The notes below the pieces were generated by a model. That model saw nothing but the letters and a program-made list of their open reading frames with translations. It was not told where the DNA came from and made no database searches. A stretch of 64,000 nt of DNA. Source: Bacillota bacterium. GTDB lineage: Bacteria > Bacillota > DTU025. The stretch lies in assembly GCA_019136685.1 (NCBI GenBank), contig JAGVTS010000064.1, forward strand, positions 3,087 through 67,086, read 5' to 3'. Both the position numbers and the translations under genes were made by a program. This document shows positions 2,742 through 62,531 of this stretch, one piece after another (position 1 is the first letter of the stretch; each line of letters opens with the position of its first letter).

Positions 2742-5135
2742 GTGACAGCACGGCGAGCCCGTCGGCCGGCCCGGGCCGCCGGAGGGGCTAAGAGGCAGAA
2801 AACCAAGGCAAAACCGAGCCGCGAGGAACAAGCGCTCGAAGGGGATCTGGGCGTCGAAATCGGCGGCATATCTCTTCTGGCCGCCGCCGGGGTGGGGCTT
2901 GTGTCGCTCGTGCGGGGCCCGGCCGGGTATGTGGGCGGGGCGCTTGCGACCGCCCTGCTGAGCGCTTTGGGAAGAGGCGCCTATGTCGTCCCCTTGATTG
3001 CGGCGCTAACGGGGATACTGATGCTCTGGCGTCGCACCGGCTATGTGGTGATGGTGCGCCTGGTCGGGCTGGCTGTCGCATCTTCGGCAGCTGTGGTCGC
3101 CTTTGAGCTGGCCGCAGTTGACGGCGCTCCTCTTGCGTTGTCGTTTTCCGACTACTTGGCGAGCTCGGGCGTTCTGGGCGGGGGAGCTGTGGGCGCAGCT
3201 GGAGCCTGGGCATTCATGCGTCTGTTCGGTTACGCAGGAACCGTGGTAGTGCTGTGCGCCATGGGCGCTGCGGGCCTTGCCATGGCCACCAACGTGTCGG
3301 TGGCCAGCGCTGTGACGTGGGTTGCCCGGACGGTTTGGTCGGCCATATGTCTTGCTATCAGGATGATTAGGGCGGGGTTCGATGCGATCGTACTCAATCT
3401 GTTCGAAGAGCGTCCGCCACTACCGGACGTTCCCCATGAGGCGAGAGCAGTGGGCGCTGAGCCTGTCGACGTTTCGCCTCCGACCCCGGTTGGACCGCGT
3501 TCCGATCCAGCCATCGCGCCCGCTGCATCTTCTGTATCCGCTCCATCCGCCGCGGGTGGGGCAGCTAGGCGAGTCGCGGCCGCATCCTCGCCAGCGGCAG
3601 AGGCGCCCGGTCTGCCGCTGCAGCAGCTGAAGTTGATTGACGATGACACTGCCGCAATGCTCCCTCCGCTGTCGATCCTCAGAGCGCCAGTGCGCCGCAG
3701 GGCGGCGCGAAAGGATTCGGAGGATCCCAGTGCGCTGGGGCGAATGCTCGAAGAGACGCTTGCCAGCTTCGGTGTTGATGCTACGGTGGTCGGCGTCAGC
3801 CAGGGTCCCATGGTGACCCGGTTCGAGGTCCAGCCGGGCGTGGGGGTGAAAGTGTCGAAGATCGTCAACCTCGCTGACGATCTGGCCTTGGCTTTCGCCT
3901 CTGCGGGCGTGCGCATCGAGGCGCCGATACCCGGCAAGTCCGCTGTGGGAATCGAAGTGCCCAGCCGAGAGAAGTCCATGGTCTACTTGCGCGAGGTTCT
4001 CGATTCCGACGAGTTCCGCGGGGCCCAATCGCGCCTTACTATGGCGCTGGGCAAGGATATTGCCGGCGCCCCCATAGTGGCCGACCTGGCGGACATGCTC
4101 CACCTGCTGGTTGCCGGGGCTACAGGCTCCGGAAAGAGCGTATGTCTGAACTCGATAATCTGCAGCCTGCTCTTTAAGGCTACGCCTGAGGAAGTCAGGC
4201 TACTGATGATAGATCCCAAACGTGTGGAGCTTTCGGTATACGATGGGATTCCTCACCTCCTCGCCCCGGTGATCACCGATCCCAAGAAGGCCTCCGGCTA
4301 CCTCCGCTGGGTTGTCGAGGAGATGGAGAACAGGTACCGCCTTTTCCAGATAGCGGGAGCCAGGAACATCGCTCAGTACAACGACATGGTCAAGTCGGGC
4401 GATTTGGAGCAGTTCCTGCCGGACCAAGAGGCGGAGGCTGAAGCCGACGCCGAGGCCCCGCTGCCTCGGGCGCTGTCGTATGTCGTTGTGATCGTGGACG
4501 AGCTGGCCGACTTGATGATGGTGGCACAGCGCGAAGTGGAGGACGCCATAGCCAGGCTGGCCTTCATGGCCCGCGCTGCCGGCATTCACCTGCTGATAGC
4601 CACTCAGAGGCCGTCGGTGGATATACTGACCGGAATAATCAAGGCCAACATCCCGTCTAGGATCGCCTTTGCCGTGTCGAGCCAAGTGGATTCGCGCATC
4701 ATACTCGACACCGCGGGCGCCGAGCGCCTGCTGGGCAAGGGCGACATGCTTTTCCACCCGGTGGGGCTGCCTAAGCCCATCCGGGTCCAGGGCGCCTACA
4801 TCTCCGACGAGGAGGTGGCGGCGCTAGTGGACTTTGTGCGACGTCGAGGCGAACCGCTCTACGAAGCCGAGAGTGTGGAGTCCTCCGTGAAGACGGGAGA
4901 AGGGATAGCCGAGGACGACGAGCTGTTTGCGGAAGCGGCCACGCTGGTGGTTCAGACCGGCGAGGCGTCCATATCCAAGATACAACGGAGATTCAGGGTA
5001 GGCTACGCGCGAGCCGCACGGTTGATCGATACCATGGAAGTGCTGGGCATCATCGGCCCTTACGAGGGCAGCAAACCCCGAAAGGTGCTAATGGACGAGG
5101 CTGGACTTGAGGAAGTGCTCGGGCGTCGCGGATGA
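2742..5135 (+). CDS. ftsK: DNA translocase FtsK/SpoIIIE
   Basis: N-terminal 4-TM region, Ala/Pro-rich linker, motor domain with Walker A GATGSGKSVCLNS, Walker B VVIVDELADLM, and a C-terminal winged-helix gamma domain. Confidence 0.9.
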   Translation: MTARRARRPARAAGGAKRQKTKAKPSREEQALEGDLGVEIGGISLLAAAGVGLVSLVRGPAGYVGGALATALLSALGRGAYVVPLIAALTGILMLWRRTGYVVMVRLVGLAVASSAAVVAFELAAVDGAPLALSFSDYLASSGVLGGGAVGAAGAWAFMRLFGYAGTVVVLCAMGAAGLAMATNVSVASAVTWVARTVWSAICLAIRMIRAGFDAIVLNLFEERPPLPDVPHEARAVGAEPVDVSPPTPVGPRSDPAIAPAASSVSAPSAAGGAARRVAAASSPAAEAPGLPLQQLKLIDDDTAAMLPPLSILRAPVRRRAARKDSEDPSALGRMLEETLASFGVDATVVGVSQGPMVTRFEVQPGVGVKVSKIVNLADDLALAFASAGVRIEAPIPGKSAVGIEVPSREKSMVYLREVLDSDEFRGAQSRLTMALGKDIAGAPIVADLADMLHLLVAGATGSGKSVCLNSIICSLLFKATPEEVRLLMIDPKRVELSVYDGIPHLLAPVITDPKKASGYLRWVVEEMENRYRLFQIAGARNIAQYNDMVKSGDLEQFLPDQEAEAEADAEAPLPRALSYVVVIVDELADLMMVAQREVEDAIARLAFMARAAGIHLLIATQRPSVDILTGIIKANIPSRIAFAVSSQVDSRIILDTAGAERLLGKGDMLFHPVGLPKPIRVQGAYISDEEVAALVDFVRRRGEPLYEAESVESSVKTGEGIAEDDELFAEAATLVVQTGEASISKIQRRFRVGYARAARLIDTMEVLGIIGPYEGSKPRKVLMDEAGLEEVLGRRG

Positions 5136-5160
5136 CAAACACACGCGGGAGGTGCTAGCT

Positions 5161-5607
5161 TTGAAGGAGATCGGCGACCTTCTGAGGGAGGCGCGTGAGG
5201 CTTGCGGCATGACACTGCAGCAGGCCAGCGAAATCACCAAGGTCCGCACGAAGTACCTTGAGGCCATCGAAAACGGTGAGTTCGCCGCCATACCCGGGGA
5301 GGTGTACCTCAAGGGTTTCATACGCACTTACGCCGACTGCCTCGGCCTCGATGGCACGCAGGTGCTCGTGCAGTACAAGGAACTGCGGCATGCGCGCGAT
5401 TCGGCGGCGCTGCGTCAGCTTGAGCAGGAGCGGATCGGCAGGATGGAGCGTACCCGCGAGGAGAGGAAGCAGCGGCGTCTGCTCGCGTTGGGAAAGGGTA
5501 TCTTGGCAACGCTGATAGTGGCGGCTGTGGCGCTTGTGCTCTACTACACCGGCCGGTCCATGGGGCTCATCAAGTGGACGCCCTCGTGGCTCGAGTGGCT
5601 CCGGTAA
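5161..5607 (+). CDS. short RodZ-like protein (XRE-type HTH plus single C-terminal TM; no extracytoplasmic domain)
   Basis: HTH (MTLQQASEITKVRTKYLEAIE) followed by the RodZ-typical EVYLKGFIRTYADCLGLD, then a TM helix. TTG start 5161 preceded by GGGAGG. Confidence 0.55.
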   Translation: MKEIGDLLREAREACGMTLQQASEITKVRTKYLEAIENGEFAAIPGEVYLKGFIRTYADCLGLDGTQVLVQYKELRHARDSAALRQLEQERIGRMERTREERKQRRLLALGKGILATLIVAAVALVLYYTGRSMGLIKWTPSWLEWLR

Positions 5608-13758: not shown

Positions 13759-15321
13759 ATGGCGCAGTCCCAGAGAGTCCCTGTGCTCGCCATGAAAGGG
13801 ATAACGAAGCAGTTTCCCGGAGTCTTGGCTAACGACAGGGTCGACTTCACTCTTGAGCAGGGCGAGATACACGCCCTCCTGGGCGAGAACGGAGCGGGCA
13901 AGTCGACGCTCATGAAGATATTGTACGGCCTTTACGGGGCCGATTCCGGCACGATCAGCGTCCGAGGGCAAGAGGCGCTGATCCGAGAACCCAACGATGC
14001 GCTGCGCCTGGGCATCGGAATGGTGCATCAGCATTTCATGTTGGTCCAGCAATTCACCGTGGCGGAGAACCTTGTGTTAGGCTCCGAACCCCGCAGAAGA
14101 GGGATATTCCTGGACATGAACGCCGCGGTCGCCAAGGTGAAGGAAGTCTCAGAACAGTATGGCCTTGCCATCGATCCCAACGCCAGGATTACCGACATCT
14201 CCGTGGGCATGCAGCAGCGTGTGGAGATACTGAAGGCCCTTCTCCGCGGCGCAGATATCCTTATTCTGGATGAACCTACTGCCGTGCTGACTCCGCAGGA
14301 GGTGTCCGAGCTTTTCGCGATAATGCGGAACCTTCAGGCTCGCGGCAAGTCTATCGTCTTCATCACTCACAAACTCAAAGAGGTGATGGCCATTTCTGAG
14401 CGAGTGACGGTGGTGAGACGAGGACGGGTTGTCGGGTCGCTCGACACGTCGAGCACGAGTGTCGACGAACTGGCAAGGCTGATGGTCGGCCGGGACGTTG
14501 AGCTCGTGGTTGAAAAAGGACCTGCTCACCCAGGTGAAGAGATCCTGGTTGTCGACGACCTTAACGTGCTCGATGCGAGGCGACTGCCGGCTGTGAGAGG
14601 GGTTTCGCTCTCGGTTAGAGGCGGTGAGATACTCGGAATCGCGGGAGTGGATGGCAACGGCCAGACGCAACTGGTGGAGGCCATTACGGGCATGAGACGC
14701 TGCGCGTCCGGCCGTGTGATGTTAGCCGGGAAAGACATAACAAACTCCGAGCCCCGCAGGCTGTTCGAGTCAGGCGTGGTACACATTCCCGCCGATAGGC
14801 AGCGGCACGGGCTGATCTTGGATTTCTCCATAGCTGAGAACATGGTGCTCCAGACGTACTACCGTCCTCCATTCAGCGTCAAAGGCAGGTTGAACTGGGA
14901 GGTTATCAGGAGCGAGGCCAGGCGGCTGATAGAGGAGTTCGATATCCGAACGCCCGGTGAGGATGTACCTGCAGGCTCGCTTTCCGGAGGCAACCAGCAG
15001 AAGGTCATTGTGGCCAGAGAACTGTCGCGCCAACCCGAGCTGGTGATTGCGGCCCAGCCTACTAGGGGCCTCGATGTCGGAGCCATTGAGTTCGTCCACG
15101 GCAGGCTCGTGGAGGCTCGAGACGCCGGAAAGGCTGTTCTCCTAGTTTCACTGGAGCTTGATGAGATACTCGCCCTTGCCGACAGGATAGCGGTGATGTA
15201 CGAGGGCGAGGTCGTGGGCGTGCTCAGCCGAGATGAGGCCACGGAGGAACTCCTGGGGCTGATGATGGCCGGAGCGGCGCGTGGATCTGACCCCGATGCA
15301 TCGGAGGTGGCGACCGGATGA
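13759..15321 (+). CDS. ABC transporter ATP-binding protein with two fused ABC domains (sugar/nucleoside-type)
   Basis: Two Walker A sites (GENGAGKST, GVDGNGQTQ), LSGG signature, Walker B ILILDEPT. ATG 13759 preceded by GGAGGG. Confidence 0.9.
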   Translation: MAQSQRVPVLAMKGITKQFPGVLANDRVDFTLEQGEIHALLGENGAGKSTLMKILYGLYGADSGTISVRGQEALIREPNDALRLGIGMVHQHFMLVQQFTVAENLVLGSEPRRRGIFLDMNAAVAKVKEVSEQYGLAIDPNARITDISVGMQQRVEILKALLRGADILILDEPTAVLTPQEVSELFAIMRNLQARGKSIVFITHKLKEVMAISERVTVVRRGRVVGSLDTSSTSVDELARLMVGRDVELVVEKGPAHPGEEILVVDDLNVLDARRLPAVRGVSLSVRGGEILGIAGVDGNGQTQLVEAITGMRRCASGRVMLAGKDITNSEPRRLFESGVVHIPADRQRHGLILDFSIAENMVLQTYYRPPFSVKGRLNWEVIRSEARRLIEEFDIRTPGEDVPAGSLSGGNQQKVIVARELSRQPELVIAAQPTRGLDVGAIEFVHGRLVEARDAGKAVLLVSLELDEILALADRIAVMYEGEVVGVLSRDEATEELLGLMMAGAARGSDPDASEVATG

Positions 15322-25715: not shown

Positions 25716-25816
25716 CGTGCCATTCCTGCCGGGTCATTACAGAGGGGCCCGCGGGACCCGTGTGATATAATCATCCGTGCAGCTTGAGGGCTGTTTACCA
25801 GAGGGGAGGGTACGCC

Positions 25817-27942: not shown

Positions 27943-29244
27943 ATGAAGGCGGAGATTCTTTCGGTCGGCACTGAACTACTGTTGGGGCAGATCGTCGACA
28001 CGAACGCTGCATACATCGCGCGCCGACTGGCGGAACTGGGCGTCACTTTGCACCGAAAGACCACTGTAGGCGACAACTTGGTCCGCGTATCGGCTGCCGT
28101 GCGGGAGGCGCTTGAGCGCGCGGACATCGTGATCGCCACCGGCGGCCTGGGGCCGACGGAAGACGACCTCACACGTGAGGCAGTGGCGGAAACGCTGTCG
28201 GTGGGGCTCGTGGAAAGCCCTGAGGTTCTTGCCGACCTGGCGAGGTACTTCGAGGCCCGCGGCGTCCGCATGACTGAGAATAACCGCAGGCAGGCGCGGA
28301 TGCCCGAACCGGGAGCAGGAGGGCTGATACCGAACCCGATGGGCACTGCTCCGGGCGTCCTGTTCGAGTCAGGCGACAAGCGTGTGATATGCATGCCGGG
28401 CGTGCCCCGGGAGATGGAACGGATGATGGACTCCTGGGTCGTGCCGTACCTTCGTAACCGGCAGCGCGGGCCCGGCGGCACTCAGGTGATAAAGTCGAAG
28501 GTTGTGCGGACTTCGGGGATTGGCGAGTCGACTTTGGAAGCGCTCATAGTCGACTTGGCGCACGGGCGCGATAATCCTACGGTAGCTACCTACGCCGGCG
28601 GAGGCGAGTGCCAGGTGAGGATCACTGCCCGGGCCGACTCTCTCGCCGAGGCGGACGCTCTCATACAATCCGTCCTTGCGCTTTTGCGCGCTCGCCTCGG
28701 GTCGCTGGTGTATGGATACGACGCCGACACATTGGAAGAAGCGGTGGGCCGCCTGCTCGCCGGCGCGGGGCTGACTCTTGCGTGCGCTGAGTCGTGCACC
28801 GGAGGGCTGATAGCCGCCATGCTCACCAATGTGCCCGGCAGTTCAGGGTACTTCGACCGTGGCGTCGTTACCTACAGCAACCGCGCCAAGGTCGAGCAAC
28901 TCGGGGTGGAAGAGAAAACCCTGGCCGCGCACGGGGCCGTGAGCCGTGATACTGCAGTCGAGATGGCTACCGGAGTGGCTCGGATTGCCGGTGTGGACAT
29001 CGGCCTTTCGGTGACTGGAGTAGCGGGCCCAGGGGGAGGCACGGATGCCAAGCCCGTCGGCATGGTCCATTTCGCCCTGGCAGACATGTGCCGGCCTTCG
29101 GTGATAACGGCTCGAATGAGGTTCGGAGGCGATCGTGGCGCGGTGCGGACCCGGGCGGCCAAGTTCGCGCTGGATCTCGTGAGGAGGCATCTCGCGGGGG
29201 ATTGCCGGGATCACCCGGCAGATCACCCCGCGACTGGGCAATAA
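27943..29244 (+). CDS. cinA: competence/damage-inducible protein CinA (NMN deamidase family)
   Basis: N-terminal MKAEILSVGTELLLGQIVDTNAAYIARRL and C-terminal CinA domain (SCTGGLIAAMLT). Confidence 0.9.
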   Translation: MKAEILSVGTELLLGQIVDTNAAYIARRLAELGVTLHRKTTVGDNLVRVSAAVREALERADIVIATGGLGPTEDDLTREAVAETLSVGLVESPEVLADLARYFEARGVRMTENNRRQARMPEPGAGGLIPNPMGTAPGVLFESGDKRVICMPGVPREMERMMDSWVVPYLRNRQRGPGGTQVIKSKVVRTSGIGESTLEALIVDLAHGRDNPTVATYAGGGECQVRITARADSLAEADALIQSVLALLRARLGSLVYGYDADTLEEAVGRLLAGAGLTLACAESCTGGLIAAMLTNVPGSSGYFDRGVVTYSNRAKVEQLGVEEKTLAAHGAVSRDTAVEMATGVARIAGVDIGLSVTGVAGPGGGTDAKPVGMVHFALADMCRPSVITARMRFGGDRGAVRTRAAKFALDLVRRHLAGDCRDHPADHPATGQ

Positions 29245-48815: not shown

Positions 48816-48858
48816 GCTAGGTGTTGGCCTCGCTTAATAAGGCTTTGAGGTGGAATCC

Positions 48859-50142
48859 ATGGAGTGGCTGAGGATAGAAGGAGGCCGTGAGCTTCGAGGA
48901 AGGGTGTCGGTGCCCGGCGCCAAGAACTCATGCCTTAAGTTGATGGCCCTGTGCATAATGGCATCCTCTGAATGCACCATCACCAACGTGCCCTCCATCA
49001 CTGATGTCGACACCATGTGCGACCTGCTCCGGGCGGTGGGAGCCGGTATTGTGCGCCAGCGCGCTTCGGTTCTGTCTGTCGACCCGAGGCCGATTGCATG
49101 TACCCGTCTGCCGGAGCAGCTGGTCAGGTGCATGCGCGCCTCGGTACAGGTGTTAGGGCCGTTGCTTGCCAGATTCGGCGAGGTTCAGATGCCATATCCC
49201 GGCGGATGCCCCATAGGATCACGTCCGATAGATCTGCACCTTAAGGGGCTTGCCGCCATGGGCGCTCAGTTTTCGGAGGAGCACGGGCTGATCAGCGGGC
49301 GTGCCAATCGCCTAGTGGGTACGGAGATACATCTGGATTTTCCCAGTGTAGGCGCTACCGAGAACCTGATGGCTGCGGCGTGCCTGGCAACTGGAACCAC
49401 CGTGATACGCAACGCTGCCCGCGAGCCTGAGATCGTGGACCAGCAGAACTTCCTTACGCGACTCGGAGGGCAGATCCGAGGCGCCGGCACCGACACCATC
49501 AGGATCACTGGTGTGCCTGAGCTGGGAAGCACTACTTATCCGGTGATGCCCGACAGGATACAGGCGGGAACCTACATGATCGCCGCCGCAGCTACCCGCG
49601 GCGACATCACAGTCACCGACGTAGTGCCGGAGCACCTGGAGGCGGTCGGGTCTAAGCTGGCCGAGTCCGGAGCGGCCGTTATTGCCTCGGAAGATTCCGT
49701 AAGGGTGGTCATGGGCGACAGGCCGGCGCCCATATCAGTCAAGAGCATGCCATACCCGGGGTTCCCCACCGATCTGCAGGCGCCCATGGCCGCCCTGCTC
49801 ACGGTGGGTCGGGGCACAAGCGTGGTCACCGAGAACATCTTCAACAACAGGTTCCGCTACGTCGACGAACTGAGCCGCATGGGCGCCCAGATATCAGTGG
49901 ACGGCAGGACCGCCATAATCCGCGGGGTGAGTGAACTGACGGGCGCGCGGGTCGCTGCTCCGGATTTGCGCGCAGGGGCCGCTCTTGTAGTCGCGGGCCT
50001 TGCGGCCCGCGGCGAGACCATCATCGACGGCGTAGAGCACATCACACGAGGTTATGACGGCCTTTCCGAGCGATTGGCGTCCTGCGGAGCCCACATCAGC
50101 CATACTGTGGATGCTCCGGAGGCAGCATCCTTCGATTCGTGA
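48859..50142 (+). CDS. murA: UDP-N-acetylglucosamine 1-carboxyvinyltransferase MurA
   Basis: VPGAKNS, active-site Cys loop (PYPGGCPIGSRPIDLH). ATG 48859 preceded by GAGGTGG; GTG 48850 is an alternative. Confidence 0.9.
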   Translation: MEWLRIEGGRELRGRVSVPGAKNSCLKLMALCIMASSECTITNVPSITDVDTMCDLLRAVGAGIVRQRASVLSVDPRPIACTRLPEQLVRCMRASVQVLGPLLARFGEVQMPYPGGCPIGSRPIDLHLKGLAAMGAQFSEEHGLISGRANRLVGTEIHLDFPSVGATENLMAAACLATGTTVIRNAAREPEIVDQQNFLTRLGGQIRGAGTDTIRITGVPELGSTTYPVMPDRIQAGTYMIAAAATRGDITVTDVVPEHLEAVGSKLAESGAAVIASEDSVRVVMGDRPAPISVKSMPYPGFPTDLQAPMAALLTVGRGTSVVTENIFNNRFRYVDELSRMGAQISVDGRTAIIRGVSELTGARVAAPDLRAGAALVVAGLAARGETIIDGVEHITRGYDGLSERLASCGAHISHTVDAPEAASFDS

Positions 50143-50153
50143 AATCCCCTTCT

Positions 50154-50177
50154 GCCGTGGTATAATGGGGTCAGGCT
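50154..50177 (+). promoter_or_regulatory. extended -10 promoter GCCGTGGTATAATGGGGTCAGGC upstream of divIB-ftsA-ftsZ (copy 1 of a repeated 23/24-mer)
   Basis: TGGTATAAT matches TGnTATAAT. The same 15-mer plus GTCAGGC recurs at 58095-58118. Confidence 0.5.
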
Positions 50178-50203
50178 GGTCGCGCCGGGTGGAGGTGCAA
50201 GCT

Positions 50204-50953
50204 GTGCCTGACTATTCCCACATGTCTCAGTCGCCGGAGCGGCAGCGGGGGATACCATTTCCCGCCATTGCGCTGCTCTTTGTCGTTCTGTGCGTCGTCG
50301 CCTTCCTGCACTCTCCGTACTTTGAGATCAGGCAAGTGCGCGTCAGCGGCGCTGACTACCTGCTAGAGCACGAGATCCTGTTGATTGCGGATATCCCTGA
50401 GAAGTCCAACGTGTTTCTTGTCCCCACGAAAGAGATAGAGAGAAGACTCGTCGCTACGCCGCGGATACGTGAAGCGCGCGTAGATAGGATCATCCCCGAC
50501 ACGCTCCGGATCCATCTGGAGGAGCGCGCTACCGTGACTTACCTTCCGTACGGAGGCTACTTCATCGACATCGATGAGCACGGCTGCGCGGTCGCTGTGT
50601 CGGAGGCGATCACCGACCCCGACGTGCCTCTGCTGCTCGGGGTAATCCCTACGTACGTGGCCGTGGGCGAGCGCGTTAAGCCCGAGCGGTCGGTCGCCAT
50701 CGGGGCCGCGATCGGGGCAGCACTTGTACGGCAGAAGATACCCAACCTGTCGGAAGTGGACGTGACCTCGCTAGAAGACGTAGTTATCCGGACTTCAGAT
50801 GGAATCCGCGTGCTAGTGGGTTGCCTCGATGGCATCGAGGAGCGAGTAAGGCTTCTCGATTCGATCCTGGCCTCAGTGAGAGAACAGGGCACGCCGGTGG
50901 ATTATGTCGACGTCCGAGTGGAGGCCAAGCCCGTGATACGGGTGAAACGATAA
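50204..50953 (+). CDS. divIB: cell division protein DivIB/FtsQ (POTRA domain)
   Basis: Short cytoplasmic N-terminus, TM (IPFPAIALLFVVLCVVAFL), POTRA (YFEIRQVRVSGADYL...). GTG 50204 is 6 nt after GGAGGTG (ATG 50222 is an alternative). The listed ORF start 50054 overlaps murA and is rejected. Confidence 0.75.
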   Translation: MPDYSHMSQSPERQRGIPFPAIALLFVVLCVVAFLHSPYFEIRQVRVSGADYLLEHEILLIADIPEKSNVFLVPTKEIERRLVATPRIREARVDRIIPDTLRIHLEERATVTYLPYGGYFIDIDEHGCAVAVSEAITDPDVPLLLGVIPTYVAVGERVKPERSVAIGAAIGAALVRQKIPNLSEVDVTSLEDVVIRTSDGIRVLVGCLDGIEERVRLLDSILASVREQGTPVDYVDVRVEAKPVIRVKR

Positions 50954-51041
50954 ACCGCCGGACGCAAGAGGGAAACGAGCGGAGTTCTAGAATCATGCAA
51001 CGATATGGCGACCCGGTTCGGTGTGGGCGGAGGGAGCTAGT

Positions 51042-52256
51042 TTGGGCAAGAGAGACATCGTAGTTGGGCTCGACATCGGATCGAGCAAAGTATGTGCGGT
51101 CATATGCGAAAAACGCGATGATTCATCCCTGGATGTGGTGGGCATGGGAGTCAGCCCATCCGCGGGCCTCAGGCGCGGGGTGATTGTGGATATCGACTCT
51201 GCGGCGGCGGCCATATCCGATGCTGCCGCGCGGGCCGAGAACATGTCAGGTTGTGCTCTGGTTTCAGCGGTGGCCAGCGTGTCGGGGGCGCATGCAGTGA
51301 CAACATACAGCAAGGGGATGGTCGCTGTTAGCAGGCCCGATAGGGAGATAGGCCAGGACGACGTGGAAAGGGTGCTCGATGCTTCAAGAGTGGTGGCAAT
51401 TCCGCCCGACCGCGAAGTGATCCATGTGCTTCCACGAGAGTTCGTGATAGACGGGTGCCGAGGCATCCGTCGCCCGGTGGGAATGTCGGGTATCAGGCTT
51501 GAGGTGGAGACGTGCATAATCACCGGTTCGGCCACGTCGATTCAGAACGTGCGGCGCGCGGCGGCGCGCGTGGGCCTGGAAATAGATCAATTGGTGCTGC
51601 AACCCATCGCAGCGGCCGAAGCTGTGCTAACTGAGTCGGAGAAGGATCTGGGCGTGCTGATGATCGATATCGGCGGCGCCACCACCGACATCGCGTGCTA
51701 CCTCGACGGCACACTGCAGCACACTGCGGTGATACCCGTGGGCGGAAGCCACATCACAAACGATGTCGCGTTGGTGCTGCGTCTGCCTGTGGGTTACGCT
51801 GAGGAACTCAAGATCAAGTACGGCGCGGCCCGTGCGGATATGGTGAACCCGGACGAGATGTGCGGAAAGGACAACGGAATATCACGGCACAAACTATGCC
51901 AGATAATCGAAGCACGAGTGTATGAGATAATGGAAATGGTCAAGGCTGAGGCGGATGCGCGCGGCCTTGCCGGGCAACTCCCGGCCGGAATCGTGGTGAC
52001 CGGCGGCGCCGCTTTGATGCGCGGCACGGCCGAGGCGGCACAGGATGTGCTCAAACTGCCGTCACGCCTGGGCGTTCCCACGGGGGTATCGGGCATGGCC
52101 GATGTTGTGGCGAGCCCGGCATATGCCACGGCGCTGGGCCTGGTGAAGTATGCGTGGGGCAGTTCAGGCGCGGCGTCCGGGTCAGCCGGCAGGCGCCGAT
52201 CCAGCGGCTTTGCCGCGAACGTTCGTGAGTGGTTTCGGGAGATTTTCTCCTCGTGA
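51042..52256 (+). CDS. ftsA: cell division protein FtsA
   Basis: Actin-fold motifs (IVVGLDIGSSKVCAV, ...DIGGATTDIA..). TTG 51042 preceded by GGAGGGAG. Confidence 0.9.
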   Translation: MGKRDIVVGLDIGSSKVCAVICEKRDDSSLDVVGMGVSPSAGLRRGVIVDIDSAAAAISDAAARAENMSGCALVSAVASVSGAHAVTTYSKGMVAVSRPDREIGQDDVERVLDASRVVAIPPDREVIHVLPREFVIDGCRGIRRPVGMSGIRLEVETCIITGSATSIQNVRRAAARVGLEIDQLVLQPIAAAEAVLTESEKDLGVLMIDIGGATTDIACYLDGTLQHTAVIPVGGSHITNDVALVLRLPVGYAEELKIKYGAARADMVNPDEMCGKDNGISRHKLCQIIEARVYEIMEMVKAEADARGLAGQLPAGIVVTGGAALMRGTAEAAQDVLKLPSRLGVPTGVSGMADVVASPAYATALGLVKYAWGSSGAASGSAGRRRSSGFAANVREWFREIFSS

Positions 52257-52277
52257 GAGCTGCAAGGGGGATGCGAG

Positions 52278-53351
52278 GTGTTTGAACTAGAGATCGAGAT
52301 CGATCACTTGGCCAGCATCAAGGTAGTAGGTGTAGGCGGTGGCGGCAGCAACGCCATCAACAGGATGATCAGTGCGGGGCTTCGGGGCGTCGAGTTTATC
52401 GCTCTGAACACGGATGCCCAGGCTTTGCGCATGGCTGATGCTCCAAACAAGATACAGATCGGCGAGAAGCTCACTAAGGGGCTTGGCGCCGGCGCGAATC
52501 CCGAGATCGGCAAGAAGGCCGCCGAGGAAAGCCGCGAGCAGCTGGGGCAGTCGCTCAGCGGCGCCGACATGGTCTTCATTACCTGCGGCATGGGTGGAGG
52601 CACCGGTACCGGCGCCGCGCCCATCATAGCGGAGATCGCCAAAGAGCAGGGGGCTCTCACAGTGGGCGTGGTGACCAAGCCGTTCGCCTTCGAGGGCAGA
52701 CGCCGGATGGCCCAGGCCGACCAGGGAATTGCCGCGCTCAAAGACAAAGTTGACACGCTAATCGTTATTCCCAACGACCGTCTGCTGCAGGTAGTGGAGC
52801 GCAACACTTCGATCCTGGAAGCGTTCCGAGTGGCAGACGACGTGCTGCGCCAGGGCGTTCAGGGCATTTCCGACCTGATCATAGTGCCCGGCCTGATCAA
52901 CTTGGACTTCGCTGATGTCAGGACGATCATGACAGACGCGGGCTCCGCTCTCATGGGCATCGGCATAGCGTCGGGCGAAAACCGTGCGTCCGAGGCGGCC
53001 CGCACCGCTATATCCAGCCCGCTGTTGGAGGCCTCGATAGAAGGCGCCAAGGGCGTTCTGATGAACATCACAGGCTCATCCAACCTGGGGCTGTTCGAAG
53101 TGAACGAGGCGGCCGAGATAGTGTCGAGCTCCGCCGATCCCGATGCGCTCGTGATCTTCGGCGCCGTTATCGATGAATCCATGGGCGAAGATCTAAAAGT
53201 CACCGTAATTGCCACGGGATTCGAGACGGCTGTCCGCTCCCAGGCAGTGCCCGCGGGTTCCAGGCTTCCTCACGCCGACAGGGTTCAGATCAAGCCGCTG
53301 GCCGGCGGCGATGATCTTGATATCCCGCCTTTCCTCCGGCGCGCCAGGTAG
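52278..53351 (+). CDS. ftsZ: cell division protein FtsZ
   Basis: Tubulin signature [10 protein letters not shown] and [17 protein letters not shown]. Confidence 0.95.
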
Positions 53352-53393
53352 AAACGCTTCGAATACATAGCCTCCACATAGCAACAACATATA

Positions 53394-53440
53394 GCGGCGC
53401 ATCCATTCTTAAGCAGGCAGGGTGCGCCGCTTCTTCATCT
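53394..53440 (+). terminator. intrinsic terminator after ftsZ (GCGGCGCA ... TGCGCCGC plus TTCTTCATCT)
   Basis: Perfect 8-bp inverted repeat with a 21-nt loop followed by a T-rich tract, 43 nt after the ftsZ stop. Confidence 0.55.
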
Positions 53441-53537
53441 CGGAATCCATCGCGCCGTTCGTCGCCCTAACCCGACACCTTTCGGAGTGAGGGGGTGCTA
53501 CACTGAATACAATTGCGTAGTGGGGGGGGTGCCGCAG

Positions 53538-54437
53538 GTGATCCGCTTGTATGTCGACTCCCTGCTACTCCTGGCCGGCAGCACGTTCATCCTCGACCTG
53601 GTCACCTTGTGGGCTGTAAGGCAGATAGGCGGCGCGGGCGCGCCCAAAGCTAGATCCGGGCCCAGGCTGGCGGCTGGGGCCGGCTTGTCGACGGCAGTGT
53701 TCGTGGCCATGGCGAGCTTGGCACAGGCGGGGCTAGTCAGCCTGACGTCAGGCGTCTCGATTCTGGCCGCGGCGGCTGGAGCCGGCGCTTCGCTGATCCT
53801 GGCTTTCCCCGGGATGTCGGTGCGAGGCGCGGTTACGGCGTTTGTCTACCGCTCTCTCCTGACCGCGCTGGCCGGAGGCGCGGCGACTGCCGCATACTCC
53901 TTTACCGCGGGGAATCCGGCGGCCTCGTTCATCGCGGCCATCGCAACGGTGGGAGTGGTGGCCGAGGCCGGCTGGGGAGCAGTCCATCGCGGCATTCGCG
54001 ACGGGCTGTTCGTGGTTCCCGTCGACATCGATTTCGGCGCCGACCGTGTTTCGGTTCAGGCACTGATCGACACAGGCAATCGCCTGCGCGACCCGGCTTC
54101 CGGCAATCCCGTGATAATAGTGGAGTACGGCGCGATCGAGTCCGCACTGCCCTGGCAGGTCAGGGCAGCTTTAGCCAAGTCCGATGACGACTTCATGGCT
54201 CGGGCGCGGGCTGTCGCCGGTTCGACCTGGTCGTCGCGGTTCAGAGCCGTTCCGTACTCCTCCGTAGGCAGGGAGAAGGGGATGATGGTAGGCTTCAGGC
54301 CCGACCGAGTACGCGTGGCGGACGGCAGGAGAATGGTCACTACTTCGCGCGCTGTAGTATGCGTTCATACATCCGCACTATGCCCGGGAGGCAACTACCG
54401 GGCGCTGGTCAACCCGGATATCCTGACGGTCGCGTGA
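53538..54437 (+). CDS. spoIIGA: sigma-E processing aspartic peptidase SpoIIGA
   Basis: Five N-terminal TM helices and the catalytic [11 protein letters not shown] (D-T-G). GTG 53538 after a poly-G SD. TGcTACACT extended -10-like element at ~53496-53504. Confidence 0.85.
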
Positions 54438-54460
54438 GTCCACATGGGAGGCTTGCTCAG

Positions 54461-55189
54461 ATGGAGATGATTGAGAGAGCCCTCTGGATAGTACGATTGC
54501 TGCTCATCAAGCTCCTCGGCAGACTGGCTACGGCCGACGACTCAGTCTGTTACGTGGGGAGCCACGAGACGCTTCCGGCTCCGCTTACCCCGGACGAGGA
54601 GGCGTGCCTGATCGGCCGACTTATGGGTGGGGAGGAGGATGTCAGGGCAGAACTGGTGGAGCGCAATCTGAGGTTGGTCGTGTACATCGCCCGCAAGTTT
54701 GAAAGCACCGGAGTGGGCGTGGAGGACCTGGTGTCCATCGGTACCATAGGCCTAATAAAGGCCGTCAATACATTCGATCCGAGCAAGCGGATAAAGCTGG
54801 CCACTTATGCGTCCAGGTGTATTGAAAACGAGATACTGATGCACCTGCGCAAGACCAACAGAATCCGAAGCGAGGTATCATTCGACGAACCGCTCAACGT
54901 TGATTGGGACGGCAATGAACTTCTCCTTTCGGACGTGTACGGGACTGACGACGACCTGATATACCAGGCCATCGAGGAGGAAGTAGATCGTGCCCTGCTC
55001 AGCGAGGCTTTAGCCGCCTTGACCGGCAGGGAGAAGCGCATCATGGAGCTGAGATTCGGCTTCACAGGCGGGTCCGAAAAGACTCAGAAGGAGGTAGCCG
55101 ACCTGCTCGGGATATCGCAATCATACATATCCAGGCTGGAGAAGAGGATCCTGATCAAGCTGAGGCACCAGATAGTCAGGGCTGAGTGA
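54461..55189 (+). CDS. sigE: RNA polymerase sporulation sigma factor SigE (pro-sigma-E)
   Basis: Pro-sequence [22 protein letters not shown], then ...[57 protein letters not shown], near-identical to B. subtilis SigE. Confidence 0.9.
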
Positions 55190-55394
55190 GACGATCACTG
55201 CAGCAGTCGGCGGCACGTGCCCAAGTCGCGCCCGGTCGGGGGAAGATCCACCCGGCCGGGCGCTCCACTATCTTGACAGCCAATGTGTTTGCACTCAATT
55301 CGAATAAGTGCAACAGAATAAACGTCGAGCATCGGAGCAATACTCTTACTGGAATCCCGGCGACGCGAAGTCAAGATTGTGGGGTTGTTCCGAA

Positions 55395-56168
55395 ATGGCG
55401 CTGAACAAAGTTGAGATCTGCGGCGTCAATACCTCGAAGCTTCCGGTGCTCTCGAGCACGAAGATAAGGGAGCTTCTGGAGGCAGTGCGCGACGGCGATG
55501 AGGAAGCGCGTGACAGGTTGATATACAGCAACCTCCGGCTGGTGTTGTCGGTCATTCAGCGCTTCACCAACAGAGGCGAATACGTTGATGACTTATTCCA
55601 GGTGGGCTGTATCGGCCTGATCAAGGCCATCGACAACTTCGACCTGGGGCAGAACGTCAAGTTCTCCACATACGCAGTACCCATGATAATCGGCGAAATC
55701 AGAAGGTACCTGAGGGACAATAACCCGATCAGAGTGTCGCGATCCCTGCGCGACATCGCCTATCGGGCTCTGCAGGTCCGTGACAGGCTCGTCGCTGATA
55801 CCTCTCGAGAGCCAACGGTGACCGAGATCGCCGCCGCCTTGGGCCTCCCGCGCGAGGAGATAGTGTACGCCCTGGACGCCATACAGGAACCGATATCCCT
55901 CTTCGAGCCGATATACCACGACGCGGGCGATCCCATCTACGTAATGGACCAGGTGTCGGATGACAAGAACCTGGACGTCAACTGGCTTGAGGGCATTTCC
56001 ATCAAGGAGGCCATGCTGAGGTTGCCGGCGCGCGAGCGCCTGATACTCCGACTCCGATTCTTTGAGGGTAGGACTCAGATGGAGGTGGCCGACGAGATCG
56101 GGATTTCGCAGGCACAAGTATCTAGACTTGAGAAGGCCGCTCTGAAACAGATGAGGGCCTCGATGTAA
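55395..56168 (+). CDS. sigG: RNA polymerase sporulation sigma factor SigG
   Basis: MALNKVEICGVNTSKLPVL...LRLVLSVIQRFTNRGEYVDDLFQVGCIGLIKAIDNFDL...YAVPMIIGEIRRYLRDNNPIRVSRSLRDIAY..., near-identical to B. subtilis SigG. Confidence 0.9.
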   Translation: MALNKVEICGVNTSKLPVLSSTKIRELLEAVRDGDEEARDRLIYSNLRLVLSVIQRFTNRGEYVDDLFQVGCIGLIKAIDNFDLGQNVKFSTYAVPMIIGEIRRYLRDNNPIRVSRSLRDIAYRALQVRDRLVADTSREPTVTEIAAALGLPREEIVYALDAIQEPISLFEPIYHDAGDPIYVMDQVSDDKNLDVNWLEGISIKEAMLRLPARERLILRLRFFEGRTQMEVADEIGISQAQVSRLEKAALKQMRASM

Positions 56169-56182
56169 AGGAGGGTTACGCC

Positions 56183-56962
56183 ATCAAACACGAACTCGCT
56201 GTCAGGGTAATCACGTGCGCCGCAATACTCGCTCTGTCATTCGTATGCTTCATGGCCGCGACTGCTCGCCCTTCCGGAGCTAGGGCGCCTGAAGAGGCGA
56301 CGCCCGCCTACAACTCGGGGAACCTCATCAGGCTGCACGTCGTTGCGCCCGGCGACGATCCCCAGAGCCAGCGCCTGAAATTCGCCGTGCGCGACAGTGT
56401 GCTTGAGGAGACCGGCAGGCTCCTGCAATCGGCGGACGATGCGAATCAGGCAACCCGGATCCTTCGAGCAAACCTATGGCAGATAGAAGCGGCGGCCGAG
56501 GAAGCGGTGGCCAGGAGCGGCACTTCACATCGAGTGCAAGCCGCTCTGGGCACATTTTCTTTTCCGGGCGTCTCGTACGGAAACGCCTTGCTGCCGGCCG
56601 GAGACTACCTTGCTCTGAAAGTGGCGATTGGGCCCGCGTTGGGCGCCAACTGGTGGTGTGTGCTGTTCCCACCCCTGTGTCCGGTGGACCTGGAGAGGAC
56701 ACGCATCCTGGAGGTCGCTGCGACCGCGGGCGATTCCTCTGCCCCAGGTTGGCAGAGCAATGCCGGCGGGCGGCTTCTCACACTTGAACTGGCGATGCAT
56801 GCCGGACCTCTGGCCGGGGCCGTCGCCCGCAGAGAGGCCACGTTCTACCAGATCGCCACCGGTTCTCCGCGTCTGACTCTGGCCCAACTCACCTGGGAAA
56901 TTCCTGCCTGGGCCTGCCGTCTTCTGAAGTGGCCCCAGCTTCAGCAGGCACGCAGCCGGTAG
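56183..56962 (+). CDS. spoIIR: stage II sporulation protein R (SpoIIR), forespore signal activating SpoIIGA
   Basis: IRLHVVAPGDDPQSQRLKFAVRDSV and GANWWCVLFPPLC match SpoIIR hallmarks (B. subtilis IRLRILANSDSDQDQQLKRHIRDAV ... GANWWCVLFPPLC). First ATG is 56252, but the signal peptide (IKHELAVRVITCAAILALSFVCF) is encoded upstream with no canonical start. ATC 56183 lies 7 nt after AAGGAGGG. Confidence 0.8.
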   Translation: MKHELAVRVITCAAILALSFVCFMAATARPSGARAPEEATPAYNSGNLIRLHVVAPGDDPQSQRLKFAVRDSVLEETGRLLQSADDANQATRILRANLWQIEAAAEEAVARSGTSHRVQAALGTFSFPGVSYGNALLPAGDYLALKVAIGPALGANWWCVLFPPLCPVDLERTRILEVAATAGDSSAPGWQSNAGGRLLTLELAMHAGPLAGAVARREATFYQIATGSPRLTLAQLTWEIPAWACRLLKWPQLQQARSR

Positions 56963-57017
56963 AACCGCCTCCTGCCGAAGCCTCAGCGCTTCGATTGCAC
57001 TCATCTGTTGCCTCCTG

Positions 57018-57025
57018 CATACAAT
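57018..57025 (+). promoter_or_regulatory. sigma-E-like -10 element CATACAAT upstream of ylmC (tentative)
   Basis: Matches the sigma-E -10 consensus CATACA-T. A putative -35 (TCATCTG) sits at suboptimal spacing. Confidence 0.25.
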
Positions 57026-57060
57026 GTGAAGGTTCATCATCTCCTGCAGGAGGTGCCTCA

Positions 57061-57330
57061 ATGATTCTCCGAGCTTCCGAACTCCGTGTCAAAGAAGTCG
57101 TCAGCGTCAACGACGGCAAGCGGCTTGGCTACATATTCGACCTCGAGATCGACATGGATACGGGCAAGGTCATTAGCTTCGTGATTCCCGGAGGCGGCAG
57201 GATCCTGGGTTTTCTGGGGCGCGGAGGTGAACTCGTGATCGACTGGGAGAACATCAAGAAAGTCGGCAAGGACGTGGTTTTGGTAGACGACTCCGAGCTC
57301 GCCGGCGCCGGCGGGTACACACCGGGCTAG
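57061..57330 (+). CDS. ylmC: PRC-barrel sporulation protein YlmC/YmxH family
   Basis: MILRASELRVKEVVSVNDGKRLGYIFDLEIDMDTGKV aligns to B. subtilis YlmC MISISEFQVKEVVNVSNGKKLGSIGDIDINVTTGKI. ATG preceded by GGAGGTG. Confidence 0.85.
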   Translation: MILRASELRVKEVVSVNDGKRLGYIFDLEIDMDTGKVISFVIPGGGRILGFLGRGGELVIDWENIKKVGKDVVLVDDSELAGAGGYTPG

Positions 57331-57436
57331 GCACGGCACGCGCTTGGAAAGTGTCCGTATGCCGCAACCAATGGCTTCACTTGCCTTCGAGGGGGGACAA
57401 TATCCGAGACGCATAACACAATAGCGCCGATTAGCC

Positions 57437-57465
57437 TTGAAAGCCGGGGCGCATGATGCTATACT
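57437..57465 (+). promoter_or_regulatory. strong sigma-A-type promoter TTGAAA-N17-TGcTATACT driving the Hint-domain gene
   Basis: Near-consensus -35, 17-nt spacer, extended -10 (TGn), then GGAGGA SD 8 nt before ATG 57489. Confidence 0.6.
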
Positions 57466-57488
57466 GCGCCTGCTGGAGGAGATGCTTC

Positions 57489-57995
57489 ATGCAATGTTGC
57501 TTGCCGGAGAATACAGCATTACTCATCAAAGACTCCACAGGTGAGGTCAAGCGAGTTACGCTGGACTATTTCGATGCCATGCTTAACGACGAACCGGATG
57601 GTCCCGCCCTCGGCAGCCTGAAGGCGCTCGGCCGCGACGGCTGGGTGGAGTTGACATCGGTCAGTCGCAGGCGCCTATGGGAAGGCGAGGAGCTGTTGTG
57701 CGTCCGCACACGTTCAGGGCAGATCGCGTTGACCGGCGACCACAGGATCGCGGTCAAGCGTGGCATGGAGGATATCGTCGTGCCTGCCAGGGACCTTGGC
57801 ACAGGAGACGCCATGATGGTCTTTGAACAGCCGGCGCTGGGCAAGAGCGCTCGTCCTATCGGGGAAGAGCCGGTATTCAGGCCTTTCGGCGTGCTGTCGG
57901 TGATCAGAACCGTTGGCTACGATGGGCGTATGTATCAAGTTGAAACCGCCGACCACACGCTGGTGGCCAACGACTTCCTTACGCACACGGTGTAG
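57489..57995 (+). CDS. stand-alone Hint (intein-like / Hedgehog-intein) domain protein, 168 aa, essentially no exteins
   Basis: Begins MQ-C-CLPENTALLIKDSTGEVKRVTLDY (intein block A with Cys at the junction), has TGDHRIAV (block B T-x-x-H), ends MYQVETADHTLVANDFLTHTV (blocks F/G, with the terminal HN replaced by HT). Confidence 0.6.
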   Translation: MQCCLPENTALLIKDSTGEVKRVTLDYFDAMLNDEPDGPALGSLKALGRDGWVELTSVSRRRLWEGEELLCVRTRSGQIALTGDHRIAVKRGMEDIVVPARDLGTGDAMMVFEQPALGKSARPIGEEPVFRPFGVLSVIRTVGYDGRMYQVETADHTLVANDFLTHTV

Positions 57996-58094
57996 TCGAA
58001 GTTCGTACGGCTGCTTGCCGTCTGGTCTCTGCGTCATAGTCGCATACCTGACCTTCCGAAATGCGCCAACACCGCCAGGAGCGCCCGGAGGCCC

Positions 58095-58118
58095 GCCGTG
58101 GTATAATGGTGGTCAGGC
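58095..58118 (+). promoter_or_regulatory. extended -10 promoter GCCGTGGTATAATGGTGGTCAGGC upstream of the HlyD-like gene (copy 2 of the repeated motif)
   Basis: Same TGGTATAAT plus downstream GGTCAGGC as at 50154-50177, with a 1-nt insertion. Confidence 0.5.
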
Positions 58119-58171: not shown

Positions 58172-59443
58172 ATGTGGACTACTCCGAAGCGAAAACGCCC
58201 GAGGCTTGAGGAGCGTACTGCCGCCGAGCGTGCTCAGAAACGTTTTGCAAAGGCTGCGGCCGTGGTTGTGGTCGCAGTGCTTTCATATTCTCTCTTCGCC
58301 GCCGTTCGCCCCATGATTACGATGAGGTCATCCGGAACAGCCCATGCGTATTCGGGATGGGTCGAGGTATCGTTTCCAGGCGATGCGGTGATCGTTCGCG
58401 ACGAGCGAATTGTCGCCACCCCGATCAGCGGCGTAATCCACTTCGTCGTGGAAAACGGTGAACGGGTTGCAGCCGGCGCAGTTGTGGCTGAGGTGCGCGA
58501 CAGGGCGGCTTCCGAAGCCCCGCAGTCCGGTTCACTTAGGGCTGAGGAGGAGACCGACCGGTTTGTGCAGGAGTGCGCCATGCGCGAGCAGCGCGAGAAG
58601 GAGCGGCTTTCGGCGCTGAGAGTTCAGATTGCCATCAAGGAAACCGAGCTTCGGGCGTACATCGATCGCAAGGACGCCAAGAATGCTAACCGACTCCACG
58701 CGGAACTCGCCGAACTCCGTCAACGCGAAGATCAAGCAGTTGACGCCCTTGCCCGGATCCAGGAGGAGGCGCGAGCCGCAGCAGCAGCGGTGGCCGAAGC
58801 CAAGCGCCGATCCGATATCTCCTCCACTCGCGCGCTTGCCGTGCTGCGGGCCTTCGGCGCATCCCTTGTCAGCACCCACATCGATGGGCTGGAGGGCGTG
58901 TATAGCCCGGCCAACCCCGACCTCCTCGGGGTCTCGCCCGCCGACCACACACCTTATCCGCGCGCCTGCTCCGAGGGAGATTCAGTTGCCGCAGGCGCCG
59001 CGGTCTTTCGGGAAGTGCAGAACCTCCGCACCAACTTGCTGGTCTTCGCGGATGTGCCTGAAGATGCAGTGCCGGGGGCAGGGAGCAGGGTGCGCGTGCG
59101 CTTCCCCAGGCTTGCCCTAGAGGCCGTCCCTGCCACTGTGATAGGCAGCCGACGACGACCGGATATGTCGGCCAATACCTGGTCATTTCACATTGCCCTC
59201 GACCGGTACGCTACGACCCTGACGGACCTGCGCTCGGAGAAGGTCACACTGGTGACCGAGCGCGTATCAGGGATCTTGATTCCTCGCTCAGCCCTGGCGC
59301 GAAAAGACGATGAGTATGGCGTATGGCTGCTCAGGACCAACCGGTTCATCTGGCGCAGCGTGACCGTGCTCGGCATGAACGAGGAGGAGGCGGCAGTCGA
59401 GGGAATACGAGAGGGCGACCGGGTGCTTATCAGGCCGCGGTAG
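58172..59443 (+). CDS. HlyD-family / membrane-fusion-protein-like secretion protein (N-terminal TM, lipoyl-like hairpin, long coiled coil, beta-barrel)
   Basis: TM AAAVVVVAVLSYSLFAAV; lipoyl-like ISGVIHFVVENGERVAAGAVVAEV; ~100-aa coiled coil; C-terminal beta-rich region. ATG 58172 after GAGAGGCAGAGACAGGG. Occupies the slot where ylmD lies in B. subtilis. Confidence 0.5.
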   Translation: MWTTPKRKRPRLEERTAAERAQKRFAKAAAVVVVAVLSYSLFAAVRPMITMRSSGTAHAYSGWVEVSFPGDAVIVRDERIVATPISGVIHFVVENGERVAAGAVVAEVRDRAASEAPQSGSLRAEEETDRFVQECAMREQREKERLSALRVQIAIKETELRAYIDRKDAKNANRLHAELAELRQREDQAVDALARIQEEARAAAAAVAEAKRRSDISSTRALAVLRAFGASLVSTHIDGLEGVYSPANPDLLGVSPADHTPYPRACSEGDSVAAGAAVFREVQNLRTNLLVFADVPEDAVPGAGSRVRVRFPRLALEAVPATVIGSRRRPDMSANTWSFHIALDRYATTLTDLRSEKVTLVTERVSGILIPRSALARKDDEYGVWLLRTNRFIWRSVTVLGMNEEEAAVEGIREGDRVLIRPR

Positions 59444-62501: not shown

Positions 62502-62531
62502 TTTACGGGGTCATGCTGGTGTGCTACAATG
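62502..62531 (+). promoter_or_regulatory. candidate promoter TTTACG-N18-TGcTACAAT for lspA-lgt-rluD with very short leader
   Basis: Extended -10 TGcTACAAT ends 14 nt before the lspA GTG start. Confidence 0.4.

Follow-up and report, generated by a model that had tools for sequence, protein, structure and literature searches.

The DNA analysed here is a 64,000-nt stretch (the window; positions 3,087 to 67,086 of contig JAGVTS010000064.1, assembly GCA_019136685.1) from an uncultured, digester-associated lineage of spore-former-type Bacillota/Clostridia with ~62% G+C that is represented by metagenome-assembled genomes (MAGs). It carries two nearly identical sequences of 23 and 24 nt, one upstream of divIB-ftsA-ftsZ (site 1) and the other upstream of a gene for an HlyD_2-like protein that heads a ylmE-ylmH-divIVA cluster (site 2). 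We consider it likely that these are two independent, vertically inherited extended −10 promoters, predicted to be of the sigma-A class, and that their likeness reflects neither a shared regulatory element nor a duplication. The two sequences occupy the following positions:

50154..50176, + strand: site 1 motif GCCGTGGTATAATGGGGTCAGGC, in the intergenic spacer between murA and divIB
58095..58118, + strand: site 2 motif GCCGTGGTATAATGGTGGTCAGGC, between a 168-aa open reading frame (ORF) that ends at 57995 and the HlyD_2-like gene

Each copy consists of the exact 15-mer GCCGTGGTATAATGG (50154-50168 and 58095-58109, both on the + strand), followed after a single G at site 1 and after TG at site 2 by GTCAGGC (50170-50176 and 58112-58118), so that the composite pattern is TATAATGGN(1-2)GTCAGGC with a 1-nt indel. 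An earlier note on this DNA had described the repeat and named the genes downstream, and both points are borne out, the second by Pfam scans; the range that it gave for the second motif is also right, and the first motif ends at 50176 and not at 50177. No further copy of GCCGTGGTATAATGG with up to 2 mismatches was found on either strand of the window, where 0.07 would be expected. The exact 15-mer repeat taken alone is unremarkable, because the window contains 8 independent exact 15-mer pairs compared with ~4.8 repeated 15-mers (maximum 11) in Markov-1 simulations. One of the 8 pairs of at least 15 nt is the 16-mer CTGTTCGAGTCAGGCG (14761-14776 and 28360-28375), which contains GTCAGGC. What is unusual is the composite, a 15-mer and a 7-mer joined with one indel, with both copies intergenic and both on the coding strand; the chance of such a match for a given pair is ~1e-7 by our base-composition estimate. 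The motif core is A+T-rich in a window of 62% G+C, and TGNTATAAT occurs at only 3 sites in the 64 kb, 2 of which are the two motifs, while TATAAT occurs at 4 sites; all of these sites are on the coding strand.

Both motifs are most plausibly sigma-A-type extended −10 promoters, a prediction on which we agree with the earlier note, since each has TG (−15/−14) one base 5′ of a TATAAT hexamer at a position that is kept in relatives. The elements that we assign to the two predicted promoters are these:

50139..50144, + strand: weak −35-like GTGAAA of site 1 (spacer, 16 nt), which overlaps TGA (50140-50142), the murA stop codon
50158..50166, + strand: extended −10 TGGTATAAT of the predicted divIB promoter; TGnTATAAT is kept in every lineage examined
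50167..50173, + strand: site 1 discriminator GGGGTC and predicted +1 A (50173), the latter placed by spacing
58099..58107, + strand: extended −10 TGGTATAAT of the predicted promoter of the HlyD-like/ylm operon, with no recognisable −35
58108..58115, + strand: site 2 discriminator GGTGGTC, 1 base longer than that of site 1, and predicted +1 A (58115), placed in the same way

The two bases before TG are a Y-R pair, CG, at both sites. The −1/+1 pair would be C/A at both sites, 7 nt past the hexamer at site 1 and 8 nt past it at site 2, with G at +2 in each case, and the predicted +1 lies 31 nt from the divIB start codon (GTG 50204) and 57 nt from that of the HlyD-like gene (ATG 58172). Core RNA polymerase favors G at +2, and the Y−1/R+1 pair is also an established feature of start sites. 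From −6 to −3 the discriminator is GGGG at site 1, invariant across lineages, and GGTG at site 2 of the window, where sister species have GATG or GAAG and distant lineages TATG or TGCT. GGGA at −6/−3 alters the affinity of RNA polymerase ~100-fold in Thermus aquaticus and ~10-fold in Escherichia coli, an effect attributed to sigma region 1.2 (PMC3526302).

In the mechanism that we propose, near-consensus downstream elements would stand in for the −35, namely YRTG (−17 to −14), TATAAT, a GGGA-type, G-rich discriminator read by sigma region 1.2, C−1/A+1, and G+2. The site 1 promoter would drive divIB-ftsA-ftsZ from within the murA-divIB spacer, and the site 2 promoter would drive the HlyD-like-ylmE-ylmH-divIVA group. 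Known promoter elements (the −17/−16 YR, TG, the −10, the discriminator, Y−1/R+1, and G+2) cover ~15 of the 22 shared bases, and two strong promoters of such a class in one genome would necessarily be alike over these. The earlier suggestion that the identity is more than promoter function needs holds for the divIB site, as described below, but underrates these RNA polymerase contacts. Two further extended −10-like sites are present on the coding strand, cccgtgTGATATAAT at 25763-25771 and TGCTACAAT at 62522-62530 upstream of lspA; neither has a GG discriminator or GTCAGGC.

The features assigned here resemble known promoter classes in several ways. Like extended −10 (TGn) sigma-70/sigma-A promoters, both sites have a TG one base before a perfect TATAAT, a Y-R before the TG, and a weak or absent −35, and both precede operons and lie on the coding strand. 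Gram-positive promoters of this kind form the "-16 region" TRTG class that Voskuil and Chambliss reportedly described in 1998; here, C rather than T is at −17 in a high-G+C lineage, and the promoters are predicted from sequence. The sequence directly after TATAAT is G-rich and combined with an extended −10 and little or no −35 (GGGG at site 1, GGTG at site 2), as in the GGGA downstream basal element, or optimal discriminator, which is said to contact sigma region 1.2 (work attributed to Feklistov 2006, Haugen 2006, and Barinova 2008). Neither site has exact GGGA, the sisters have GA at site 2, and dependence on sigma region 1.2 is putative here.

Syntenic contigs from relatives were gathered in three ways: graded HlyD-like homologues were looked up by exact protein, metagenome contigs were scanned with a DivIB profile, and species genomes were scanned for the DNA pattern (relatives are named below by handles such as L005). 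The gene order murA-divIB-ftsA-ftsZ-spoIIGA-sigE-sigG-spoIIR-PRC-168aa-HlyD-like-ylmE-ylmH-divIVA is conserved in them, and an extended −10 is present at both syntenic positions in lineages down to 53–60% HlyD-like identity. Orthologous copies of the site 1 motif were found in L001, L002, L005, L022, L034-L037, and L044, and we aligned site 1 from 8 lineages (the window, L005, L035, L044, L010, L038, L013, and L032), across which DivIB identity to the window falls to 59–64%. All of these have TGnTATAATGGGGTCAGG(C/T) except L035, which has GGGAACAGGC, and the part past TATAAT, GGGGTCAGG(C/T), is nearly invariant. Neither the sequence 5′ of TG nor the −35 region is conserved, and the −35-like GTGAAA is not kept among distant relatives. 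The upstream GCCG of the window is GGCG in every sister and ATCG, GCA-, or GACG further out, and Y-R-TG reads TGTG, TATG, or CATG in relatives versus CGTG in the window.

At site 2, the extended −10 is positionally conserved directly after the 168-aa ORF (it was found in L005, L007, L010, L013, L028, L029, L044, L046, and L047); it is displaced one gene upstream in L032 and absent from this position in L045. The sequence that follows the hexamer varies freely:

Window, L001, and L026, after TATAAT: GGTGGTCAGGC (the whole site 2 motif is identical in L001 and L026)
L005, L046, and L007, after TATAAT: GATGGTCAGGC
L044 (85% DivIB identity), after TATAAT: GAAGGTCGAACCAGGC, in which a 5-nt insertion splits the motif
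L027, after the −10 hexamer TATGAT: GGTGGACAAGGC
L028, after TATAAT: TGTGTGCAGGGC
L010, after TATAAT: TATGGCCGATGC
L029, L047, after TATAAT: TATCACTG / TAGCACTG
L013, after TATAAT: TGCTGCATGAGG

It reads GATGG in sister species and is unrelated in lineages at 51–60% identity. Conservation past the −10 into the predicted +1, which had been claimed for both motifs, is thus a property of site 1 but not of site 2, and because the second promoter varies freely there, the conservation at site 1 exceeds what a promoter needs. Comparing the two sites within each genome, the likeness extends over 15+7 bases in the window, 12+8 in L005, and 12 plus fragments in L044, and it is confined to TG-TATAAT in L010/L040, L038, L013, and L032. 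Because the likeness between sites shrinks stepwise across the genomes of relatives, the near-identity of the two sites is, to judge from these sequences, a derived feature at the level of a species group. The surroundings of site 2 also vary among relatives. In the 53–60% lineages L010 (9927-9935) and L013 (9944-9952), the upstream gene and the site 2 promoter overlap at the end of the former: its stop codon (the TGA of the 168-aa ORF) also serves as the TGA in TGATATAAT, the extended −10. In L005 (9404-10000), ~600 bp separates the 168-aa ORF from the site 2 promoter versus ~100 bp in the window.

These comparisons bear on whether GGTCAGGC, with or without the upstream GCCG, is a shared cis-regulatory element that functions at both promoters of the species group. 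Such an element could be an operator over the transcription start site (TSS) or a common initial transcribed sequence (affecting start choice, sensing of the initiating nucleoside triphosphate, or promoter escape), both of which the earlier note had suggested, and it would co-regulate divIB-ftsAZ with the ylm/divIVA operon. The identity does exceed known promoter contacts, the candidate +1 falls on the same A even with the 1-nt indel, each operon includes genes for division proteins, and GGTCAGGC is kept at site 2 in the window, L026, L005, L046, and L007 (5 sampled close lineages). However, the insertion in L044 splits the site 2 motif while site 1 is intact, lineages at 77–79% identity already differ, and those at 51–60% are unrelated 3′ of TATAAT. 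Thus, GGTCAGGC at site 2 is limited to close relatives, and instead of being kept at both sites, as an operator would be, the motif is lost from site 2 in L044, L027, L028, L010, L029, L013, and L032. There is no dyad or direct-repeat symmetry inside the 23/24-mer, neither GTCAGGC nor GGTCAGGC is significantly enriched within the window, and a third copy of the motif is absent both from the 64 kb (up to 2 mismatches) and from related MAGs (exact scan). We regard a shared element in either form as unlikely. Both motifs do precede cell-envelope/division genes, as had been pointed out, but this counts for little, given that the region as a whole is a division and cell wall (dcw)/division/sporulation-sigma cluster.

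Two intergenic copies of a short, nearly identical sequence could also represent a dispersed repeat, such as a mobile promoter cassette or an element like repetitive extragenic palindromes (REP) or miniature inverted-repeat transposable elements (MITE), or they could come from the recent duplication that the earlier note had raised. To look beyond the window, we scanned 185,579 genomes, one per species, for exact matches to TGGTATAATGGN{1,2}GTCAGGC. Of the 12 matches, 2 are orthologues, L022 (site 1) and L026 (site 2), with a single match in each MAG; the other 10 come from unrelated taxa, among them Ignavibacteriaceae, Planctomycetota, Oscillospiraceae, and an archaeon, and by our estimate this number falls within what chance would give. 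No single genome in this exact scan contained a family of motif copies, and with one match per related genome the motif is not common genome-wide. Along with just 2 copies in the 64 kb at up to 2 mismatches, this argues against a dispersed repeat, as does the lack of flanking inverted repeats or target duplications around either site. A long duplication was rejected because the ~250 nt surrounding each site, aligned pairwise, showed no similarity beyond the motif edges and the flanks were unalignable. The likeness is also not that of a recent duplication, because both promoters occupy matching syntenic positions in distant relatives down to ~53–60% protein identity, with unrelated sequence downstream. 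Both possibilities are highly improbable and already largely refuted. An exact 19-mer, TGGTATAATGGGGTCAGGC, was also seen in promoter-like intergenic settings in two Oscillospiraceae MAGs (L019, 2466-2484; L020, 7733-7751), which is probably chance. A tRNA-like or Rfam element was rejected as the identity of the motif, with 0 Rfam matches at the gathering threshold over the window, 0 at E≤1 around both sites, and 0 tRNA genes.

The shared positions for which promoter elements give no explanation are −19, −18, −13, −3, −2, +3, and +4 (n=7), and the chance of matching all of them is ~5e-4 for the pair by our composition-based estimate. Among sister species, 3 of the 7 vary: −13 does so at both sites, and −19 and −18 do so at both sites only if L044 is counted for site 2. 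Because these 3 positions differ between sisters and the window was picked for its likeness, we take the residual similarity to be a lineage-specific coincidence, with a short gene-conversion tract being less likely. In the latter case, ectopic conversion of ~20–25 bp would have occurred between the two sites, which are 7.9 kb apart in direct orientation, either in the ancestor of the species group or in this species. Conversion would fit the sharp stop of similarity at the edges of the 23/24-mer as well as two base states: the window has GCCG at site 1, the site 2 state, versus GGCG in all sisters, and it has GG after TATAAT at site 2, the site 1 state, versus GA in L005, L046, L007, and L044. 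Nevertheless, these are two single-base states in a window chosen for similarity (ascertainment bias), the 1-nt indel persists, and a shared seed of 12–15 bp is short for homologous recombination. Moreover, the outgroups L027 (GGTGGACAAGGC) and L028 (TGTGTGCAGGGC) already resemble site 2 of the window, which fits gradual drift better than a replacement event, and we consider gene conversion quite unlikely.

The extra constraint past the −10, which applies to the divIB promoter only, may come from a stem with the ribosome-binding site in its loop. At site 1, GTCAGGC has its reverse complement, GCCTGAC, at the divIB start, and the predicted hairpin has the following parts:

50170..50176, + strand: 5′ arm GTCAGGC, overlapping the discriminator and the predicted TSS
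50191..50197, + strand: Shine-Dalgarno sequence GGAGGTG of divIB, in the hairpin loop or interior in the folds
50204-50206, + strand: divIB start codon GTG, in a (G/T)TG CCT GAC context that is invariant across all 8 lineages
50206-50212, + strand: 3′ arm GCCTGAC, whose first base is the last base of the divIB start codon
50167-50215 in the window, 1534-1585 in L010, 362-410 in L013, and 1347-1392 in L032: divIB leader stem

The stem joins the post-−10 sequence GGGGTCAGGC to the divIB start region (G/T)TGCCTGAC. It is predicted in 8 of 8 lineages, with both arms near-invariant (L035 is the exception) and an interior that is variable but always includes the Shine-Dalgarno sequence, and the GGGG run extends it by pairing with UCU, UCC, or CCC in distant lineages. 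Folding gave −34.2 kcal/mol in L013 (z = −2.0) and −36.9 kcal/mol in L032 (z = −2.6), with z = −2.0 in L010; the version in the window itself is not exceptional (z = −0.1). CCT accounts for 18.6% of Pro codons in window genes, yet it is fixed at the divIB start in all lineages, and this fixation of a rare Pro codon argues for nucleotide-level constraint on the 3′ arm. A dimeric operator made up of GTCAGGC and GCCTGAC was rejected because the arms are 25 to 31 nt apart, depending on the lineage, and such a variable distance is easier to reconcile with RNA pairing than with a rigid protein site. From these observations, we regard the divIB leader hairpin as a conserved feature with a putative function. 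Leader folds at site 2 gave z-scores near 0, and a candidate hairpin partner for GGTCAGGC there, CCTGACC at 58047-58053 upstream, was rejected since it is present in this species only and not in L005/L007.

The complete stem-loop would form only in transcripts that read through from murA, and a transcript begun at A50173 would retain only 4 stem pairs. One could imagine that GGGGTCAGGC (−6..+4) and GCCTGAC together make a promoter-embedded RNA switch, a reading that we hold to be doubtful. Read-through transcripts from the mur genes would then have the complete hairpin enclosing the divIB ribosome-binding site and those from the internal promoter would lack the 5′ arm, so that DivIB translation or mRNA stability would depend on the promoter used. 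In this species group, the promoter of the second division operon would have arrived at the same start-site sequence by convergence, for a similar reason.

Hairpins that embed the start codon or Shine-Dalgarno sequence, and 5′ stabiliser stem-loops, form a class of Gram-positive leader structures that the divIB stem resembles in its 8–12 bp, its internal Shine-Dalgarno sequence, and its conserved arms. It differs from that class in that the 5′ arm falls on the discriminator and predicted +1 of the promoter, that the full stem would be confined to read-through RNA, and that covariation is lacking. In Bacillus subtilis, the dcw cluster has a divIB-proximal sigma-A promoter together with read-through from murB, and ftsAZ has promoters P1–P3; these internal promoters were reportedly characterized by Harry et al. 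in 1994 and Gonzy-Treboul et al. in 1992. The arrangement here is similar in that divIB would have its own promoter directly upstream besides mur read-through and in the spoIIGA-sigE-sigG and ylm-divIVA order downstream, but it is murA rather than murB that precedes divIB. We know of no description for Bacillus of a deeply conserved stem linking the TSS region to the divIB start.

Several points weigh against the interpretation of the two motifs as independent promoters with a leader stem at one of them. Promoter activity and the +1 at both sites are predictions. With 7 shared positions unexplained, pure coincidence is not a comfortable account of the residual, and in this species two derived states bring the sites closer together, namely C (position −18 of site 1) and, possibly, G (position −5 of site 2), which might be a trace of gene conversion or of convergent selection. 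The genome-wide scan covered exact matches in species-representative MAGs only. For the stem, RNA-level and DNA-level constraint are inseparable, as the 5′ arm overlaps promoter positions and compensatory double changes were found at 0 of the 8 pairs in the 8 lineages; two changes are one-sided and preserve pairing (C:G to U:G, G:U to G:C), and the L035 variant breaks 2 pairs. Finally, modeled accessibility of the Shine-Dalgarno sequence and start codon, as unpaired probabilities, showed no consistent difference between read-through and promoter-initiated RNA, and we rejected it as thermodynamic support for a distinction between the two transcripts.

A coding explanation of the repeat was also considered. 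At both sites, the ATG inside TATAATGG (50165-50167 and 58106-58108) shares the reading frame of the downstream ORF, and public gene calls begin the HlyD-like protein at ATG 58106 to give 445 aa (P0001 / L001 11233). However, the 1-nt indel leads to different peptides (MGSG versus MVVRQ) and no Shine-Dalgarno sequence precedes the ATG, so that the similarity is at the DNA level and a coding explanation was rejected. The most likely start of divIB is GTG 50204. That of the HlyD-like gene is most likely ATG 58172, because this start is common to most homologues (421–428 aa), and the 445-aa call is probably an N-terminal over-extension by 22 residues. The gene is thus listed as follows:

58172..59443, + strand: HlyD_2 / BSH_RND_rel-like membrane-fusion-type gene, by Pfam, with start ATG 58172

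By Pfam scans, the gene order around the two sites begins with murB (47898), murA (48850-50142), divIB, ftsA, and ftsZ, with the divIB product matching POTRA_1 / FtsQ_DivIB_C. It continues with spoIIGA, sigE, sigG, spoIIR, a gene for a PRC-barrel protein, and the 168-aa ORF, followed by the HlyD_2-like gene, ylmE (pyridoxal phosphate-binding), ylmH (S4), and divIVA, and downstream of these by genes for a DUF5665 protein and a DksA/TraR-type protein, lspA, and lgt. The ~168-aa ORF (57453-57995), which is conserved and present in every relative examined, is without a Pfam match; its annotated start overlaps a promoter-like site (57437-57465) of the form TTGAAA-17-TATACT with TG. Contigs nearly identical to the window are present in GCA_050945425.1 and GCA_025563055.1. 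In L013, the ftsZ-spoIIGA interval has ~1.9 kb of extra DNA with a fragment of a group II intron maturase (GIIM; 3999-5570), and L029 and L030 also have ~1.5 kb of extra DNA between ftsZ and spoIIGA.

The finding is a further instance of a well-known promoter class, with the divIB leader stem as a modest by-product. As a caution, near-identical 20–25-mers around TATAAT in a high-G+C genome can come from the positions that RNA polymerase reads, together with drift. The practical gain is a set of likely promoter positions and corrected starts for divIB and the HlyD-like gene in an uncultured, digester-associated group of Bacillota. If functional, the hairpin would give this group a route to uncouple DivIB synthesis from read-through of the mur operon.

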